Below, one piece after another: positions 3,153 to 32,000 of a stretch of DNA of 32,000 nt; within the stretch, counting starts at the first letter, position 1, and every line of letters starts with the position of its first letter. The notes under the pieces were generated by a model. The model was not told the DNA's origin. It made no database searches and saw nothing but the letters and a program-made list of their open reading frames with translations. The position numbers and the translations under genes are program-made. The DNA is from Candidatus Lokiarchaeum ossiferum. Lineage in GTDB: Archaea > Asgardarchaeota > Lokiarchaeia > Sigyniarchaeales > Promethearchaeaceae. The DNA lies in the NCBI GenBank assembly GCA_025839675.1, contig CP104013.1, positions 2,790,001 through 2,822,000 on the forward strand, read 5' to 3'.

Positions 3153-5588
3153 TTAAATCTTTTTAATTTCCTCAAACAAACGATTTGAAGCAGCACTTAA
3201 TTCTTCGGCGGCAGCAGTCATTTCTTCCAAAGTAGAAGCCATTTCTTCGGTTGAGGAGGAAAGTTCTTCAGCCGTACTTGAGCTTTCTTCAATCACACCA
3301 TTAATATTTTCCACATTAGTTACAATTTGGGTGATTTGATTGTCTTGGGTATTAACATTAACGATTGTATCCCGAATACCAACATCAGTTTCATTGATCA
3401 CCGTAAATAGAGCATCCAACTGCAATTTTGTTTGGTCAATTGCAGTGAATCCTTGTTTAGCAGAATCAACCGTTAAATCCGTGGCACTCACTGCATCTTG
3501 TACTTCTTTTTGGATCATATTTATTAATTCATTGATTTGATCTGCAGCTTGTTTGGAATCTTCGGCAAGTTTTCGCACTTGTTCAGCCACAACAGCAAAA
3601 CCTTTACCCGCATCTCCAGCACGAGCTGCCTCAATTGCAGCATTCAAAGCAAGTAAGTTTGTTTCTGTAGCAATCCCAGAGATCACATCTACAATTTTAT
3701 TGATTTCTTTACTTTTTTGAGATAAGGATCCCATCGTTTTAGAAACTCGTTCGGCACCGTCGTTAATCTCTTGAATCCGGAGTAGTAAATCATCAGTTAA
3801 AGCTTTTCCCTTTTTAGCCATACTTTGGCCTTCTTTGGATTTCATCGCAATATCTTCGGTACGAATAACGATTTTATCACTCAAGCCTTTTATTTGAGTT
3901 ACAGCATCAGATATCTGCATGACTTGTTGGGATTGACTTTGAGCACCTCGAGCAACTTCTTGGGATCCCCCAGTTACTTCTTGAACCGAAATATTAATTT
4001 GATTCGAAGATTCAGAGATCTGTTCTGCCATGGAATTAACTTCACTAGCGATTGTTTCAACATTTTCAATTAGGCCTCGAATGGTAGTCATATCAACAAA
4101 TGTGGTGAGATTTCCAAGGGGAGTACCGTTTGACGAATAGAGAGATTTAACAAAATTACTCACAATGATTTTTTTATTTTTAGCATTAGCAAGTTCATAT
4201 TCAAAATCAGAAAAGCCTCCATCTCGCTTAAATAATTGAACTGCTTCATCACATCGTTTTGAATCCACAAAAAATACATCAGGATTACGACCTAAAACAT
4301 CTTTTTCTTCGAATCCGGTCAATTCAAGGAAGGATTTTCCTACCATAGTTATCGCCAAGTTCTCATCCATCACCACCAAGGGAGATGAAGAAGAATCGAC
4401 TATGCTTTTATTCATATCGATAAGAATTTTGGTTTTACTAACCATTTCTTGTATATTTTGAGTAAGACCAACTATTTCGGTATCATTTGATTTGCTATAG
4501 ATTTCTGTGTCATAACTGCCCTTGGCAACTTCTTTTGCTTGAGATTGCAATTGTTCAATTGGGTTACTAATTGTTTTTGAGATGAAGAAGATTAGAAGAC
4601 CTAAAGCAACAACTCCAACAAACATTATAATTAAAGTGATGATTAGAAGGGAAGAAACAGCACCCAAGATTTGACTTCGAGGAAGGACGAAAGCAATGGA
4701 TCCATCAATTAAAGATATTGGCTTATACACTACAATAAAGCTGCCATAATCCAATGAACCAGATTTAGCACCCTTCATTTCAGTTAAAATTGTTGTTAAA
4801 GCCGCTTTATCGGTAGTATCTTGATCAATTAAATTATCTGTATTAAAGTATTCCCCTTCATCATAAGTCGCTGCAAAGGTGACTTCAACATTATCATGGG
4901 CTAAAATCGCACCCATTTTATTATCCAAGAGAAAAGCATAACCTCCATCCATCGTCCCACTAAGAGCTTTTATCTCAGTTTGTAAATATCCAATATCAAC
5001 ATCCAAACCTGCGACACCAATAATTGTATCCCCATCATATATCGGAATTGTGGCGGACATATATAAGAAATCGAGCACAGGATCGTAGTCCGGTTGTGTC
5101 CAAGTGAAATTTTGAGCGGTGATTGCTGTCTCATAGTACAGAGACCCATCATAATCGGCATATGAATAATATTCCAACACAACTGCCCCATCTCCATCAA
5201 GATATGCCAACGGCATATATTCAGAAGTAGTTGCCCCCGCTGTTTCATTCCAAGCCATATTCGGTTCAAAAGCCACCCATGCATCATAAAGCCAAATATT
5301 TGCAAGCACTAATTCGCCTAAATAAGCTTGGGTACTTTCCATAAAAGTAGCTTTATTGATTTCCAAATCTTTTTCAACTTGTTTCCCAAGTGATCGAACG
5401 ATATGTTCATATCTCTCAAATTGTTGATTAAATCCTGAAACATATTCACCAACTTGCATTTCAGCGACTTCCACAACTTTGGTTTTATATTTCGGTTGGA
5501 TGTAGAGGTATGAGATCAACCCACTTGCCACTAACGCTATCAATGCAGGAACAAGAATAAATAACAACATACGTTTCTGTAAATTCAT
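3153..5588 (-). CDS. methyl-accepting chemotaxis protein (TM - Cache-like sensor - TM - HAMP - PAS - MCP signalling domain)
   Basis: The C-terminal domain carries the near-invariant hairpin-tip sequence [35 protein letters not shown]. There are two TM segments ([23 protein letters not shown] and [23 protein letters not shown]) flanking a ~280-aa aromatic/Asp-rich extracytoplasmic domain. A PAS-like block ([33 protein letters not shown]) follows. The track start at 5624 is GTG, and the ATG at 5588 ([12 protein letters not shown]) is the likely start. Confidence 0.9.
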
Positions 5589-5958
5589 CTTTAGTAGATT
5601 CTGATTTTTTACCAATTTTTTCACCTAAAATATCTCCAAGCAAAATTCACCCTTTTCACTAAATATATTGTTGCATTGATAACAATTCTTAGAAAAAATA
5701 TGAAATCTGTAAATAAAATTACGAATAAGTAAATTCAAATCTAATTTAACATTCTTTAAATCGTATTCAATCGATATGATGTGATATTAGCAACAACAAA
5801 ACAAGATCAAAAAGTCTTGATTATTTACGTATCTTATAAATAGAATCTTTTATGGATCCCCTTTTTTTTATCAAGATACTATTTCTGGGAAATAAATCTA
5901 AACCATAGCTTTTTGGACAAGCATGAATTGTATCATAAGTAGGAGTTGCTCATAAAAC

Positions 5959-10697: not shown

Positions 10698-11600
10698 TTA
10701 GATTTCTCGGGATGGATTTGACATTTCCACATCTTTTTTTTCAAGTTGCTCAAGCTTGATTTTATAAATATACCATATAATTCCAAATAGTAGCAAAAGA
10801 ATCGAAATAACAACAATTTGATTAAGTACGGGGTTAATTAAAGTAAATCCAATGTTCCAGATAATATGTACCCCCATCGAGATAAACAAATTATTCGAAA
10901 CAATGTAGACAATGCAAAATAGAAGACCTATAAGGATCAAGAAAGGAATATTGATAATGATATCTATGAAAGAGAACCCTTGTATAATTCTATTTGGGAT
11001 ATGGATTAGCGCAAAGATTATACTAGTGGATAATGCACCTAACACTAAAGATTTAATTGGTTTTTTATCATTTTTGGATGAAATTTTTTTTGTTAATTGA
11101 GATAAGATGTATCCTCTAAAGAAAATCTCTTCAAAAAATACATTCCCAAAAATCTGGGCTATCAATAATCCAAAAGCGGAAAGAATCGTTTGTCCATCAT
11201 ATAACCACATTGGGTACCAAATTGGTTGAACATTAAAAATTAGACAGGCAATTAAAAAAATAAGATTTAAACCACACCAAAATAGGAAATAAAAAAGAAA
11301 TCCTTTCAATAATTTACCCTTCTGTATTCCAATACTTTTCCACGAATTTCTAGCAACTATTACTACGAATATAACAAGTATAATTAAGATCAAAACTAAG
11401 TATACAATAAAAGTTTGATTAATCAGGCCATCTGTGTTATTATCCACAAAGTTTAGCCATCCTTTTTCATAAACCACAAAAATTATGAAAAATATCAGAC
11501 CAACATAAAAAAGCAAAATGCTAAGTACGGTTTTCCAGGAGTTTTGTTTAGTGTTACTGCACAAATCCTCAGAAAAATTGCGTAGATGATTTTTAATCAT
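10698..11600 (-). CDS. CPBP-family intramembrane glutamic endopeptidase (CAAX protease/Abi type)
   Basis: All three family motifs sit in TM context: FFEEIFFRGY (EExxxR), IFALIHIPN (FxxxH) and GVHIIWNIGF (HxxxN). Confidence 0.85.
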   Translation of the reverse strand: MIKNHLRNFSEDLCSNTKQNSWKTVLSILLFYVGLIFFIIFVVYEKGWLNFVDNNTDGLINQTFIVYLVLILIILVIFVVIVARNSWKSIGIQKGKLLKGFLFYFLFWCGLNLIFLIACLIFNVQPIWYPMWLYDGQTILSAFGLLIAQIFGNVFFEEIFFRGYILSQLTKKISSKNDKKPIKSLVLGALSTSIIFALIHIPNRIIQGFSFIDIIINIPFLILIGLLFCIVYIVSNNLFISMGVHIIWNIGFTLINPVLNQIVVISILLLLFGIIWYIYKIKLEQLEKKDVEMSNPSREI

Positions 11601-22419: not shown

Positions 22420-23475
22420 ATGAAAAAAATTAAAATTATTATCGGATTCTCACTTCTAATCTCCGTTTGCACTTTTTCGTTTGTGTTTGCATTTAATCAA
22501 AAAAAATTTCCCGGATATACCGTAGGTTATCGAATATATGCGGATGACGAGTACGCTTATGTTTCCCATAATGACGGAGTAGAAATAATTGACATTGAGA
22601 ATAAAAGACATCCCAAAATTCTCGAAAATATAGAATTTGGAGATGGCGCTTTTGGAATTGAAAAACAAGGGGATCTTCTTTATATCGCTGGATGGTCTGA
22701 AGGCTTAATCATTGCAAATGTGAGTAATCCGAAACAACCTTCTATTTGTAGCAAAACACCGTTTGAGGGAGCTGCAAATATGCTAACTTACCATAACGAT
22801 TTAGTGTATATATTACTTAGCTCCAACGTGGTGAAAATAATGAATGTTTCAAATCCTTATTCTCCAGTTCTTCTCCCGACTTTCACAACTTCCCAAGCGA
22901 GAGATTATCGAGATATTAAAGTTGCAGAAGATGTCATCTTTATTGCAGATGTTCAGCGAGGTATCGATATAATTAATGCAAGCAATCCATCATCCCCCGT
23001 TCTACTTAACACAATCAAAACTTCGGCTCCAATTGCTCTTCATATATATGAGACAAACCTATTTCTAGGTTGTCATGGGGTTGGAGTAAAATGGTATGAT
23101 ATTTCTAATTTGACTTCTCCAATTCTTAAGGGAACTTATCAGGAACCAGGAGGTGAAGTCTACGGAGTTTGGGGGAATGTAACTCATTTATATGTAGCAG
23201 ATTTGCAAAGAGGAACCTATTGCTTAGTGACTTTGGGAGGACGATTATCAAAAATCAATCATTATGAGGGTGCAGCCCCCCATGACATTTCAGGTTCGGG
23301 AGAAACGATTTATTTGGCAGATCAAGATCTTCGGTTAATGATTTTTGATGCTAATCTTAATTGTTTGTATGACGGACACAAGAAGAGTTATTGGTTCCCA
23401 ATTGGGTTGACTATAATACCCGTAAGTTTGATTGTATGGATGAGAGGAAAAGTAAAGAAAAACTCGCCAATCTAA
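22420..23475 (+). CDS. LVIVD-repeat beta-propeller surface protein with N-terminal signal/anchor and C-terminal TM anchor
   Basis: About seven repeats of the LVIVD type, for example YAYVSHNDGVEIIDIENKRHPKIL, LLYIAGWSEGLIIANVSNPKQPSI, VIFIADVQRGIDIINASNPSSPVLL and HLYVADLQRGTYCLV. The N-terminus is MKKIKIIIGFSLLISVCTFSFVFA. The C-terminus is YWFPIGLTIIPVSLIVWMRGKVKKN. Confidence 0.8.
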   Translation: MKKIKIIIGFSLLISVCTFSFVFAFNQKKFPGYTVGYRIYADDEYAYVSHNDGVEIIDIENKRHPKILENIEFGDGAFGIEKQGDLLYIAGWSEGLIIANVSNPKQPSICSKTPFEGAANMLTYHNDLVYILLSSNVVKIMNVSNPYSPVLLPTFTTSQARDYRDIKVAEDVIFIADVQRGIDIINASNPSSPVLLNTIKTSAPIALHIYETNLFLGCHGVGVKWYDISNLTSPILKGTYQEPGGEVYGVWGNVTHLYVADLQRGTYCLVTLGGRLSKINHYEGAAPHDISGSGETIYLADQDLRLMIFDANLNCLYDGHKKSYWFPIGLTIIPVSLIVWMRGKVKKNSPI

Positions 23476-28189: not shown

Positions 28190-31100
28190 ATGAAACAATT
28201 AATGAAAAGAAATAAAATTCCAATTCGAATCTTATTCCTGGGTATCTTATTCATGATTTTGATACCATCCTTCATTCAAACAGGAATGAATAAAGATGAT
28301 AACTTTGAAAATCCCAGAAATTATTCGAATAGGACCCCAAACAGTCAGGTTGACCCAGAGGGAAATGAAATTTCCGTTGTATTATCGCTTAACACCACAG
28401 AACTTCCAGCAGGGCAATCCATAGGATTTAGCGCAATTTACACTGGGTCTGAAAATCCGGGACTATTGAGAATTTGCACGTCCTATGAAGGATATAGTAC
28501 AGTAGAATATTCCTTTGATATGTATGAAGCAGATCCCGATAATACTGATTATGCCAGTGGAAAAGAATATATTACAAATATTTCACAAAGCCTCTTGTCT
28601 ATCATCATGCCCAACCACTTTGACTTTTATTGTTATGCAATTCCAACCTTTAAAAATGTTGTAGTAGGCTTTAATGGAGATGAATCCAATGTTGAATATT
28701 TTCAAATAGTAACAGCACCACCTATCGTGGATGATATCACTTTATCTCAACACCAAGTTTATTTTAATGAGCAATCCCGCACTTTCCTTGAATGTAGTGT
28801 ATCTGATTTCGATACTGCTTTAGAAGATCTATCGGGAAAAACCTTTCTGAAAAATACAGTCAATGATGAACAAGTGCTAGTTCTAATGCATCCGTTATCC
28901 TATTATGTCTCAGATTATATTTGCAACGAACTTCCTTTCTATAATTATTTGGAGTTTATGTTAAATGACATGGGAGATATTTTTGCTACTGTCGAAGAAT
29001 TAGAAGCAGAAATTAATACCCCCACTTGTTTATACGCTCGGATAGACACGAGATCGGATCCAATTAATACTGTGATCAATTCAGCGGGACCATGTATTCT
29101 AAATTATACAGTTCAAATCACCGATGGGAATGCGTCCTCAAGTTCCGTTCCAATCCTACAAACAGTGAATTTTTATGAGGATATTGAATCCATCAATCGA
29201 CCGAACATAGCACCATCCCTCAGCGCTTCTATCAACCCTAGACCTATTTGGATAGAAAATCCTGTCTACCCGACTATTTCTGTTACTTATTACGATGAGG
29301 AAGATTATCAACCCGACACGATCCGCATGTTCGTTTATGATCCTGCAGGAAATACTCGATCCTATACTCTAGCCTATGACACAGAGAAAACTCCGATTCA
29401 TAATTCCCCAGATGATGGAATTGTTTATTCTATAGATATTGAACCCTATGGGAATCAATTCGAGGATGAAGGAGTCTATCGAGCCTATTTTACTTTTTCG
29501 GATGAGGATAATGATTGCCGTTATCCCCTCGATTCATCTCAAACAGTAAAGCTATTCTATGTCGGAGATTTAGTCGCCCTACTTGGAGGGGAAGTATCCC
29601 AAACCCGGATTGATTATTATGACACGGACAAAATAACTTTTTCGATTGATTATATGCACTATCAGAATACCGCTCCCGATTCAGATGTGATTCTCACCTT
29701 GAAAAATCCACGCAGCGGTACTATAAACACGCATCCTTGTGTTCTCATTGAAACTGATCCAAAAATTTCCAAGGGTACCACTTATACTTACTCAATGCTT
29801 ATCGGAGACACTGGTTTTGAGGATATTGGTACTTATGAATTTTGGTTTAGTACGATGGTTGATAGTACTCCGGTCCAATCCCAAGTGTACAAAGGACCAA
29901 GTGTTAGTCGGGAACAATTTTCAGCCATATTCGTCAATGGTCCAACTCGCGTGCGAATCAATTCCAGCCAAATTCTTTCTTTTGAAACATTTTATCAAGA
30001 TAGATATTCACTCCCTGACAGTGCCAAATTGTATATAATTCCGTTAGGAGAAGAAGAGAATACCACGGAATATAATTTAGCCCATGCAATTAGTGATGTA
30101 GATTATCAAGACGGAGTGATTTATAATATTTCGTTGGTAGAAGGTGAAGGAATTCTAAATCGAACAGGTAGCTATGAATATTGGATAGTGTTCAATCGAG
30201 ATGGGGAGGTACAGCGAATTCCGGGGATGGAAGACAACTATCAATTTTCCATCCATAGTGAAACGACAATTATTTCAACGATAACTGATTCGGAGATCTT
30301 TTTAGAAAAAGGAAAGGGCGAAGAGGCGGAAATCCATTTTACACTTTTAGATCCATTAAATCGATCCTATCTTACCAGTTTCCACAAACCATATTTCAGA
30401 ATTAGATATGAAAATAACACAAAAGATAAAGTTCCTCTTATTTGGGGGGATAATTTGATGGAAGTGGATAAATACGATGATAATTGGGTCGATGGGAAAG
30501 ACTTTTACTTCAAGTTGACGGAGGGTGAAGGTGTTTTAAATGCAGAGGGAGTCATAGAGGGATACCTTGAAATTATACCAGAAGATGGAGATGAAGCATT
30601 ATTTTGTCCAGGACCCCACGAATATACCTATACAACAGTTTTTAAGATCTATGATTATGCAAGTTTTACTTATGATGCAGCGGTCCATTCTTCATTGACC
30701 CCAACAATTGATCAGAATTTTAAGTGGAAATCAGGCGAGGATATTATTTTTATAGTAAATTATTCGCAACCTCAAAATTTCGAACCCAAAATGATTGCCT
30801 TAGCAATCGACGATGGGATTGTTCCTGATCAGAAACCTCACTATCCTATGGAAAAACTTGATCCTTCAGACAACAATTATACCGATGGATGTTTATACTC
30901 GATAAAAGTGGAAATGGGAGGAGAACTTCTACCTTCGATTGGAGACTACTCGTATGATTTTTATTATGGCATCGAACATCACCGAATTTTCAGGGGTGAT
31001 TTGGGACAAGGTGAATTCTATGCATTCACTATAGAAAATGACGCCCCACAACTTTCTAATATTCTTGTAGATGATCCGATTCTAAAAATAGGCGAATCTA

Positions 31101-32000
31101 TTCCAATTGTGGTAAATTATACGGATTCTGATGGCGTAGCTCCCGATGAAATTAAACTTTCCCTTTATAATGAAGGGGACGAAGGCGTTTTTGACCATTA
31201 TACCAATTTTACTATGACCCCTCAGACTGTAAATAACCGTGATTATACAATGGGAGTGCTATATATTGCCATGGTGGAAGCAGGTACATATCGTTTCAGC
31301 GAACTTGGAAATTATTCGTACTGTATTTGGGCTACAGATGGGTTAGAAACAGATTTACTCACCGAAACAGATTCGACTTTATATCCCGAACTCGAAATTC
31401 AAGATTCAATGTTCACGTTATCAGAAGGATCATCAAATCCGGCCGTAGTGAATTACTCGAACCCCACTAATGTCAACTTTTTAGTCTACTATACCGATCC
31501 AGATGGGGACTTTCCAACCTATGTTAATGTGTCGATTTATTCAGGAGATACTCTCGAAACAACCTACGATCTAGCCCAAATTGGAGGAATTCATTCCGAT
31601 ACCACAAGACCAGTTCCTTATGCTATACTTCGAGATGTCACTGCATCTTTAACCCCAGGAAATTATACCTATGTCTTTGGAGCTTTCGATGGAACAACGT
31701 ACTTGGAACTTGCCGATGAAAGCTTCACATTGGAAATACAACCATCTATGTTCACATTATCGGACGGATCTGCAACTCCAGCGGTGGTTAATTATTCGAA
31801 TCCAAGCGATGTCGACTTTTTGATCCACTATACCGATCCGGATGGCGACTTCCCAACCCATGTCAATGTGTCGATCTATTCAGGAAGCACCCTCGAGACA
31901 ACTTATGACTTAACCCTAATTGGATCCTTTTCCGATACCACGGGATTAACCCCCTACGGCATCAGCCAAGATGTTACGGCATCCTTAACCCCAGGAAATT
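28190..32000 (+). CDS. giant secreted/anchored repeat protein, over 1270 aa (3' end beyond the window)
   Basis: Absent from the ORF track because it is open at the window edge. Hand translation from ATG 28190 (stop TGA at 28181-28183 in frame upstream, GGAG at -14) is stop-free to 32000. The N-terminus MKQLMKRNKIPIRILFLGILFMILIPSF is signal-like. It is followed by at least 8 modules sharing YxDxDxxxP...GxYxYxF...DG skeletons and at least 20 N-x-S/T sequons. Confidence 0.85.
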   Translation, partial: MKQLMKRNKIPIRILFLGILFMILIPSFIQTGMNKDDNFENPRNYSNRTPNSQVDPEGNEISVVLSLNTTELPAGQSIGFSAIYTGSENPGLLRICTSYEGYSTVEYSFDMYEADPDNTDYASGKEYITNISQSLLSIIMPNHFDFYCYAIPTFKNVVVGFNGDESNVEYFQIVTAPPIVDDITLSQHQVYFNEQSRTFLECSVSDFDTALEDLSGKTFLKNTVNDEQVLVLMHPLSYYVSDYICNELPFYNYLEFMLNDMGDIFATVEELEAEINTPTCLYARIDTRSDPINTVINSAGPCILNYTVQITDGNASSSSVPILQTVNFYEDIESINRPNIAPSLSASINPRPIWIENPVYPTISVTYYDEEDYQPDTIRMFVYDPAGNTRSYTLAYDTEKTPIHNSPDDGIVYSIDIEPYGNQFEDEGVYRAYFTFSDEDNDCRYPLDSSQTVKLFYVGDLVALLGGEVSQTRIDYYDTDKITFSIDYMHYQNTAPDSDVILTLKNPRSGTINTHPCVLIETDPKISKGTTYTYSMLIGDTGFEDIGTYEFWFSTMVDSTPVQSQVYKGPSVSREQFSAIFVNGPTRVRINSSQILSFETFYQDRYSLPDSAKLYIIPLGEEENTTEYNLAHAISDVDYQDGVIYNISLVEGEGILNRTGSYEYWIVFNRDGEVQRIPGMEDNYQFSIHSETTIISTITDSEIFLEKGKGEEAEIHFTLLDPLNRSYLTSFHKPYFRIRYENNTKDKVPLIWGDNLMEVDKYDDNWVDGKDFYFKLTEGEGVLNAEGVIEGYLEIIPEDGDEALFCPGPHEYTYTTVFKIYDYASFTYDAAVHSSLTPTIDQNFKWKSGEDIIFIVNYSQPQNFEPKMIALAIDDGIVPDQKPHYPMEKLDPSDNNYTDGCLYSIKVEMGGELLPSIGDYSYDFYYGIEHHRIFRGDLGQGEFYAFTIENDAPQLSNILVDDPILKIGESIPIVVNYTDSDGVAPDEIKLSLYNEGDEGVFDHYTNFTMTPQTVNNRDYTMGVLYIAMVEAGTYRFSELGNYSYCIWATDGLETDLLTETDSTLYPELEIQDSMFTLSEGSSNPAVVNYSNPTNVNFLVYYTDPDGDFPTYVNVSIYSGDTLETTYDLAQIGGIHSDTTRPVPYAILRDVTASLTPGNYTYVFGAFDGTTYLELADESFTLEIQPSMFTLSDGSATPAVVNYSNPSDVDFLIHYTDPDGDFPTHVNVSIYSGSTLETTYDLTLIGSFSDTTGLTPYGISQDVTASLTPGN
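31409..32000 (+). repeat. in-frame tandem duplication of a 113-aa module (period 339 bp, with one codon indel)
   Basis: ATGTTCAC(G/A)TTATC... at 31409 recurs at 31748. AACCCCAGGAAATT at 31651 recurs at 31987. By hand alignment the two copies are about 75 percent identical at protein level. Confidence 0.9.

Follow-up and report, generated by a model that had tools for sequence, protein, structure and literature searches.

The stretch of DNA analysed here (the window) comprises 32,000 nucleotides of Candidatus Lokiarchaeum ossiferum (positions 2,790,001 to 2,822,000 of contig CP104013.1, assembly GCA_025839675.1) and ends within NEF87_002372, a gene deposited as encoding a hypothetical protein. 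Codons 1-1270 of its 1482 codons lie at 28190..32000 (+), and frame 1 from 28190 contained zero stops up to the last base of the window, as had been stated in the original prediction, which was made from the letters alone. The open reading frame (ORF) was 100% identical over 100% coverage to NEF87_002372 (P0001; Candidatus Lokiarchaeum ossiferum; 1482 amino acids [aa]), which bore out the suspected Asgard host and allowed the full gene to be recovered; 86% of it is inside the window, and it sits on a contig of 6,035,313 bp. Nine clear copies and one degenerate copy of a module of ~105-120 aa were found in the protein. We consider that NEF87_002372 is probably an anchored, glycosylated surface rod or spacer of Ca. 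L. ossiferum.

The gene, its modules and the ends of the protein

The start of NEF87_002372 is well bounded since an in-frame stop lies two codons 5' of the ATG, and a 370-bp AT-rich intergenic region directly precedes the gene. The ORF was missing from the program-made ORF list because it leaves the window. NEF87_002372 was alone in its 90% cluster, and its source is one genome.

The modules follow one another on the forward strand. The divergent module m0 (28367..28717, aa 60-176) is followed by region X (28718..29200, aa 177-337), to which no family was assigned, and then by m1 (29201..29566, aa 338-459), m2 (29567..29911, aa 460-574), m3 (29912..30256, aa 575-689) and the degenerate m4 (30257..30664, aa 690-825). 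These are succeeded by m5 (30665..31039, aa 826-950), m6 (31040..31408, aa 951-1073), m7 (31409..31747, aa 1074-1186), which has an intact YTDPDGDFP motif and was used for modelling, and m8 (31748..32000, aa 1187-1299), which is cut at aa 1270 by the window end. The ninth clear copy, m9, lies beyond the window at aa 1307-1413.

A hidden Markov model (HMM) seeded from m5-m8 only detected, at iteration 0, unseeded copies at aa 74-142 (m0, independent E-value [iE] 1.3e-3), 347-434 (m1, 2e-5), 474-555 (m2, 2.7e-3), 598-672 (m3, 2.4e-5) and 1307-1413 (m9, 2.4e-7), and it converged on nine copies, m4 not being among them. A profile built from 44 copies of other organisms only served as a test without circularity. 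With this external profile, NEF87_002372 scored 250.6 bits as compared to at most 10.0 bits in 200 shuffles, and nine modules were each significant (iE 5e-5 to 3e-18), with iE values of 5.5e-5 for m0, 8.9e-10 for m1, 1e-8 for m2, 7.8e-8 for m3, 2.9e-16 for m5, 3.6e-14 for m6 and 3.2e-18 for m7. When the modules were cut at the boundaries of the original prediction, they aligned in register with 23-33% pairwise identity (75% for m7 and m8) and E-values of 1e-8 to 1e-2 in a tiny database (m5 to m6, 1.5e-8). These boundaries lay within about 10-15 aa of the HMM envelopes, and the three motifs by which the module had been described were all present in NEF87_002372; of the eight or more modules claimed, the fourth (aa 690-825) proved to be degenerate, and the copy at aa 60-176 had been missed.

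In m4, just the central D..W.DG..FYF...EGEG hairpin region was recognisable. Its motif DDNWVDGKDFYFKLTEGEGVLNAEG reached an iE of 0.07 at aa 757-777 with the external profile, and BLAST aligned m4 in register with modules of the relative P0103 (E 7.6e-5), while hhalign gave a probability of 13%. Region X begins and ends in a module-like manner, and MAFFT can thread it over the module, although such threading is no evidence. HMM, BLAST and hhalign gave no support to its being an extra module, and its AlphaFold model had a predicted local distance difference test (pLDDT) of 57.6. Region X may be a module with an insertion of ~40-60 aa or a distinct distal domain.

The neighbouring copies m7 and m8 shared 75% amino-acid identity and 75% nucleotide identity. 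Among 84 aligned codons, 35 were identical, 29 differed synonymously and 20 differed non-synonymously. The pair is an old tandem duplication under purifying selection, and the excess of synonymous over non-synonymous changes argues against a pseudogene.

Hydrophobic segments were found at two places only in the full protein, at the N-terminus and at aa 1453-1477. The former lies in a signal peptide or signal anchor predicted at aa 1-33 (MKQLMKRNKIPIR, ILFLGILFMILIPSFI and QTG; 28190..28288, +), in which a basic, K/R-rich n-region is followed by a segment with Kyte-Doolittle values above 1.6 for windows starting at aa 7-16; MKQLMKRNKIPIR-ILFLGILFMILIPSFI is thus shaped like a signal peptide of the Sec type or a signal anchor. 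Past the window end, the last module leads into a low-complexity linker rich in Thr (aa 1413-1450) and then into the tail ...TTTTTTTTTTTGTNSSTSSTTDTTEPEGGGGG-IPGY-SVGLLLSCVFLSLAIIF-KKHPKSFN, with GGGGG directly before IPGY. The last 74 residues alone matched the NCBIfam model of the Loki-CTERM sorting domain (NF033507) with 22.8 bits and an E-value of 7.6e-5 (cutoff 19.9). The short motif, hydrophobic helix and basic cluster stand at the extreme C-terminus with the low-complexity linker before them, and the host is a Lokiarchaeon. Such a tripartite tail is the form of archaeosortase/exosortase-class sorting signals, as established for PGF-CTERM and ArtA. Weak resemblance of tail and linker was also seen to the C-termini of a binding protein with a PGF-CTERM anchor and of the S-layer glycoprotein of Haloferax. 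The archaeal envelope-type architecture proposed from the N-terminal part was thus borne out by a signal-like N-terminus, a Thr-rich linker and a Loki-CTERM-type tail. No mention of Loki-CTERM was found in the literature searched.

An Rce1-like/CPBP intramembrane glutamic protease is encoded at 10698-11600 (-). CPBP proteases act as sorting enzymes (myxosortases) for some C-terminal signals. The protein scored 35 bits against the myxosortase cutoff of 195, which is generic similarity only, so that as a putative processing enzyme of Loki-CTERM it is a weak lead.

The window part of the protein contained 22 N-x-S/T sequons, in line with the at least 20 that had been counted, as compared to 12.1 +/- 3.1 in residue shuffles (P about 0.002). 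The ectodomain contained 28 as compared to 14.3 +/- 3.3, and 0/5000 shuffles reached 28; the reversed control motif [ST]-x-N occurred 11 times. Sequons recurred at the same module columns in two to three copies (VNY[ST] in m5 and m6, GNY[ST]Y in m6-m8 and VNVS in m7 and m8), so that the claim of fixed positions held for these columns, although the recurrence is partly due to m7 and m8 being duplicates. Glycoproteomics of another Asgard archaeon, Promethearchaeum syntrophicum, has demonstrated N-x-S/T glycosylation (PMC11284389). Since sequons are enriched 2-fold and this precedent exists, it is a reasonable inference that NEF87_002372 would be N-glycosylated.

The other genes of the window encode a DUF364 protein, an alpha/beta hydrolase, an LVIVD-repeat protein, a CDP-alcohol phosphatidyltransferase, a glycoside hydrolase family 2 (GH2) protein, MutL, a chemoreceptor and a CitMHS transporter, besides the CPBP protease. 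They are ordinary housekeeping and sensory genes, and no operon logic links them to NEF87_002372. The LVIVD-repeat protein (22420-23475, +) starts with a signal-like segment and ends in a hydrophobic helix with a basic tail (...YWFPIGLTIIPVSLIVWMRGKVKKNSPI); it showed sub-threshold similarity to choice-of-anchor B, and its tail did not match the Loki-CTERM model. It is likely a second surface protein in the window. ARAGORN predicted a 93-nt tRNA-Ser(GGA) at 3558-3650 (-) inside the ORF of the methyl-accepting chemotaxis protein (3153-5624, -; dCache-HAMP-PAS-MCPsignal), and this prediction is probably a false positive.

The module family and its crystallised relative

Pfam, NCBIfam and PDB sequence searches with the whole of NEF87_002372 gave nothing above threshold. 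When 51 diverse module instances of the family were each scanned against Pfam and NCBIfam, at most 2 of the 51 touched any one model, and all of these matches were sub-threshold. Neither NEF87_002372 nor the 51 instances had any match to CARDB (PF07705; E<=0.1), PKD (PF00801/PF18911) or cadherin (PF00028), which agrees with the statement in the original prediction that the module does not belong to these three families. A sub-threshold cadherin match (20.5 vs 28.8 bits) was seen in the relative P0010, elsewhere in its sequence.

A profile of the nine copies was searched exhaustively against 1.84 billion cluster representatives (50% identity clusters), and 947 proteins were found at E<=1e-3, 474 at E<=1e-10 and 116 at E<=1e-30. 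The 947 relatives are for the most part giant proteins (1000-6800 residues), in which up to 49 stretches matched the profile, and many are from Asgard archaea. The search for homologues and copy-number variation, suggested as a check in the original prediction, thus gave 947 clusters with 1 to 49 copies per protein. A word-indexed search of 5.8 billion proteins returned NEF87_002372 itself only, and nothing for the 6FHJ fragment described below or the family alignment. The orphan look of diverged repeat proteins such as NEF87_002372 is therefore a search artefact.

The consensus of 47 diverse copies, P.L..G.V.P..G...T.F.F.V.YTD.DND.P..V.V.I....Y.M.K...D.DYTDG..Y.Y......G.Y.Y.F.ASDG, was sharper than the Loki copies. 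The signature motifs of the family (F.F.V.YTD.DN.AP, D..YTDG..Y.Y and G.Y.Y.F.ASDG) are complete in m7 and m8, partial in m1, m5, m6 and m9, and eroded in m0, m2, m3 and m4. Asgard members were found in Lokiarchaeota, Helarchaeota, Hodarchaeales, Sigynarchaeum, and Odin- and Hermodarchaeota, and other archaeal members in Thermoplasmata, Methanolobus, Methanohalophilus, Hadarchaeota and Altiarchaeales. Bacterial members were from Paenibacillus, Cohnella, Kribbella, Armatimonadota, Dehalococcoidia, Planctomycetia, Elusimicrobiota, Omnitrophota and Verrucomicrobia. Among the 80 loci kept in a related-locus search, about 25 were Asgard, 19 from other archaea and 36 bacterial; the query was a six-sequence subset biased to consensus-like copies, and because of this bias paralogues in L. 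ossiferum were not reported by it. The contigs of the nearest small relatives P0103 and P0006 offered no useful functional context.

An N-terminal hydrophobic segment was present in 107 of 152 relatives, and their C-termini comprised PGF-CTERM-like tails (STPGF...RRKRA), transmembrane segments with basic anchors (the three nearest relatives) and zinc-ribbon tails (34 of 150). The bacterial members are secreted-type glycoside hydrolases; in cultured bacteria, the module occurs once per protein in multi-domain enzymes of glycoside-hydrolase type, beside domains resembling carbohydrate-binding modules (CBMs). Judged by these predicted features, the family is clearly extracytoplasmic.

The C-termini of the relatives varied. 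A conserved double-CxxC zinc-ribbon tail takes the place of a sorting signal in many giants (P0011, P0013, P0014, P0016, P0019, P0021, P0026 and others, up to about 4500 aa in length), and those sampled that carry an organism name are Asgard proteins. Such tails point to a form that spans the membrane and has its zinc-ribbon domain in the cytoplasm, which would possibly serve outside-in coupling. The largest members, P0002, P0004 and P0005 (3800-6800 aa), carry the end motif ...L.WDG.DE.GRP.P.G.Y..., with the look of an FlgD-Ig/T9SS-type C-terminal domain, and this suggests bacterial giants with a different export route. In P0103 and P0105 (Hodarchaeales), which are among the nearest small relatives, the tails ...AEFPSQIV... 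and ...VPEFDSS... are followed by a helix and basic residues. Since these tails resemble PEF-CTERM-type signals, the module appears to be combined with several different archaeal sorting signals.

The structure of m7 was modelled with template-free AlphaFold, the module family being supplied as the alignment. The model was all-beta with nine strands (pLDDT 94.5; predicted template-modelling score 0.85). Foldseek against the PDB gave 6FHN as the top match (E 8e-6, template-modelling score [TM] 0.77, root-mean-square deviation [rmsd] 2.1 Å over 113 columns), followed at TM about 0.5-0.6 by CARDB of PF1109, the dimerisation domain of sulfite oxidase and FnIII-like domains of glycoside hydrolase family 3 (E-set Ig-like). 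An Ig-like beta-sandwich fold of the module, as had been proposed from its strand pattern, is thus supported by modelling.

The same protein was reached by sequence. The family profile had one match among PDB sequences, residues 817-915 of chain A of 6FHJ/6FHN, at an E-value of 5.5e-22 over the whole module, and this segment has every signature motif (YTDANNQAP, DPTDTTYSDG and GTHKFYFRTTD). A profile from the modules of NEF87_002372 alone reached 6FHJ in register at an E-value of 7 only, so that the connection with the structure is an indirect one that runs through the family. 6FHJ and 6FHN are structures of PspXan9, a xanthanase of glycoside hydrolase family 9 (GH9) from Paenibacillus nanensis / sp. 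62047 (PMC10049358, PMC11002231, PMC10881899). On the evidence of profile and model, the module is homologous to the penultimate all-beta domain of PspXan9, which adjoins CBM84. The two share size, extracellular location, motifs and fold at about 18% identity. In PspXan9, the domain is present as a single copy in a bacterial enzyme, whereas NEF87_002372 has ten tandem copies in a predicted anchored archaeal protein. Therefore, the earlier placement of the module outside named families stood in so far as no Pfam or NCBIfam model covers it, while its novelty had been overstated; by sequence comparison, it is neither novel nor Asgard-specific, being part of a large family of Archaea and Bacteria with a solved homologue (6FHJ 817-915).

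Since 6FHJ is the type structure of CBM84, identity of the module with CBM84 was also considered, and it was rejected. The PspXan9 homologue of Paenibacillus sp. YN15 aligned to 6FHJ 146-971 (E 6e-288), with its module copy corresponding to 6FHJ 817-915, and its last domain matched xanthan lyase 6F2P (6e-14) and MiXBM 7EHG (7e-13). The shared xanthan-binding domain is thus the last xanthanase domain, and the module is the preceding one; the family profile missed 6F2P and 7EHG at E<=1. CBM84, a small beta domain, is the direct neighbour of the module homologue in the xanthanase and a separate family. The published 'PspCBM84' fusion construct (PMC10049358) starts, judging from its primer, at DGRVYT, which is in the middle of 6FHJ 817-915 (about residue 877 onward), and it thus appears to include, besides CBM84, some 40 residues of the domain next to it.

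In 2018, Moroz et al. reportedly described the C-terminal beta domains of the xanthanase as having very few sequence homologues. With 947 clusters, such a near-orphan description no longer holds for the module homologue.

A putative surface rod and the alternatives

Based on these results, the following account of NEF87_002372 is proposed. The basic and hydrophobic N-terminal segment would send the chain to the Sec translocon, and outside the cell ten or eleven Ig-like beta-sandwich modules, the fold of which was modelled for one of them, would fold in series. Ig-like domains measure about 4 nm each. The rod would thus be roughly 40-45 nm long, an estimate that comes from such general domain dimensions. 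About 28 N-x-S/T sequons would be glycosylated by an archaeal oligosaccharyltransferase, the Thr-rich linker (aa 1413-1450) would hold the rod off the membrane, and the Loki-CTERM-type tail (IPGY, hydrophobic helix and KK) would keep the protein membrane-bound. In analogy to PGF-CTERM and archaeosortase A, this tail may be cleaved and exchanged for a lipid anchor. The distal copies m0-m5, which are far more diverged, may form together with aa 34-340 an exposed, fast-evolving interaction end. A structural spacer or presentation domain is the most likely role of the module, and its single copy in bacterial glycoside hydrolases, between the enzyme body and the carbohydrate-binding module, has the same apparent spacer role.

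The DxDxD and D..YTDG motifs resemble Ca2+-binding loops of the DxDxDG motif class. Only m7 and m8 retain the full DxDxD motif; m1, m6 and m9 keep part of it, and the remaining copies have lost it. It was on this ground that the membrane-proximal copies were read as a conserved stalk. The stability of PspXan9 is strongly Ca2+-dependent. The acidic motifs of m7 and m8 may therefore bind Ca2+, and m7 and m8 together with m6 and m9, in which the motifs are partly kept, may thereby stiffen the stalk.

Cryo-electron tomography of L. ossiferum has revealed a single membrane without an ordered S-layer and with small unordered densities, beyond which 'complex surface proteins' protrude further, some of them bridging protrusions (PMC9834061). 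Amorphous coats without an S-layer have been reported for two other cultured Asgard archaea. In the best reading, NEF87_002372 fits, as a candidate, the 'complex surface proteins' seen on L. ossiferum.

Several observations weigh against this account or parts of it. The acidic motif is absent from most copies of NEF87_002372, which speaks against Ca2+ binding. Region X, even when modelled with the family alignment, gave a mostly beta structure at the pLDDT of 57.6 mentioned above, and the rod length is an extrapolation of the kind described. The whole protein scored 18.1 bits (E 0.0024) against NF033507, below the cutoff of 19.9, and no cognate sorting enzyme for Loki-CTERM was identified within the 32-kb window. 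In addition, large putative surface proteins were not detected in the proteomics of P. syntrophicum, and literature searches returned no mention of NEF87_002372.

Another explanation is that the modules themselves bind glycan in the manner of lectins or CBMs, capturing polysaccharide or gripping the glycan coat of syntrophic partners with a multivalency that comes from ten copies. Bacterial single copies do sit in GH9 xanthanase homologues with DUF1080-like or CBM84-like domains downstream, but xanthan binding maps to the last xanthanase domain, which is common to 6F2P and 7EHG, and not to the module, and the penultimate domain has been credited with no binding function. The E-set beta-sandwich fold class includes many CBMs, and sugar sites assisted by Ca2+ typically have conserved Tyr and Asp residues of surface type; the conserved Tyr residues of the module, however, alternate in strands and are probably core residues, and the distal copies of NEF87_002372 have lost the acidic motifs. 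A GH2 glycosidase encoded 10 kb away in the window is a weak hint towards glycan binding, which we regard as a fairly unlikely function of the modules. It would be a more far-reaching proposal that the family is an Asgard-expanded system of Ca2+-dependent cell-cell adhesion. If this were true, module strings on the protrusions of L. ossiferum would attach to one another or to the envelopes of syntrophic partners and would be the densities bridging parts of the protrusion network, a counterpart in function to cadherins within the lineage from which eukaryotes arose, and the zinc-ribbon-tailed giants would couple outside contacts to the cell interior. This proposal is improbable.

It is very unlikely that NEF87_002372 is a lattice-forming S-layer glycoprotein and thus the main envelope protein, as in Haloferax volcanii. 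The plan of signal peptide, Ig-like string, sequons, Thr-rich linker and tripartite C-terminal sorting signal is that of the haloarchaeal S-layer glycoprotein, and the tail region is weakly similar to TIGR04216; the score of this similarity is, however, 16.2 bits against a cutoff of 400. L. ossiferum shows unordered densities and scattered larger structures instead of an ordered S-layer (PMC9834061), the two other cultured Asgard archaea likewise have no ordered S-layer, and a copy number of 1 to 49 across the family is unlike lattice subunits. A decaying or unexpressed gene, a chance-open repeat ORF or a tandem-repeat assembly artefact would be in keeping with an annotation as hypothetical protein only, with a sole 90%-cluster member from one genome, and with distal modules that are very diverged, one of them degenerate. 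Against this, 1482 codons are open in a genome of 33-40% GC, where chance stops are frequent, and the genome was assembled from long and short reads into one closed contig. The repeats are 23-33% identical (one pair 75%), so that assembly collapse is no issue, while the synonymous excess between m7 and m8 and the intact predicted targeting signals at both ends also speak for a functional gene. An explanation of this kind is extremely unlikely.

The anchored surface rod, thus, remains the account that we favour. What was already known is that NEF87_002372 had been deposited as a hypothetical protein and that tandem Ig-like, glycosylated and C-terminally sorted surface proteins are a familiar kind in Archaea. 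What is new is that its repeat belongs to a large uncurated family, which could be linked to a crystal structure already available and which differs from CBM84, and that NEF87_002372 can be named as a specific candidate for the surface structures of an Asgard archaeon in culture. Asgard archaea in culture have envelopes without an S-layer that carry 'complex surface proteins'; these have been invoked in models of the cell-cell contacts at the origin of eukaryotes, none of them yet being assigned to a gene. The present candidate comes from a cultivable strain; its domains are delimited, its module could be modelled with confidence, and it has a likely signal for anchoring. Furthermore, a family of at least 947 clusters (50% identity) would warrant a curated entry of its own, by which thousands of giant proteins now called "hypothetical" would be better annotated. 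The result is useful to specialists rather than surprising.

Comparison with known systems

The second-best structural neighbour of the module was CARDB (PF07705; PDB 3IDU, Pyrococcus furiosus PF1109), a metal-ion-binding domain found in archaeal surface proteins, which is comparable in size and has an E-set Ig-like sandwich fold. With a TM of 0.52-0.55, an rmsd of 5.2 Å and a profile-to-sequence E-value of 0.76, the likeness is at the level of the fold class only.

Giant Ig-like repeat adhesins of bacteria (Big, SiiE/BapA and RTX-adhesin types) are likewise long strings of beta-sandwiches with a conserved stalk and a variable distal end. They are often stiffened by Ca2+ at acidic inter-domain motifs, and their copy number is very variable, as it is in the module family (1-49). 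In contrast, the module had isolated sub-threshold matches only to the Big_1, Big_3_5, Big_7 and Big_9 models, and the predicted secretion and anchoring of NEF87_002372 are archaeal.

With the S-layer glycoprotein of Haloferax volcanii and the PGF-CTERM substrates of archaeosortase A, NEF87_002372 appears to share the logic of a Sec signal, tandem Ig-like domains, N-glycosylation and a Thr-rich linker. The extreme C-terminus of the Haloferax protein has a short motif, a hydrophobic helix and basic residues, as does the sequence of NEF87_002372. Unlike the Haloferax protein, NEF87_002372 has a tail that, when scanned alone, matches Loki-CTERM and not PGF-CTERM, it is built from a different repeat family, and its host carries no S-layer lattice.

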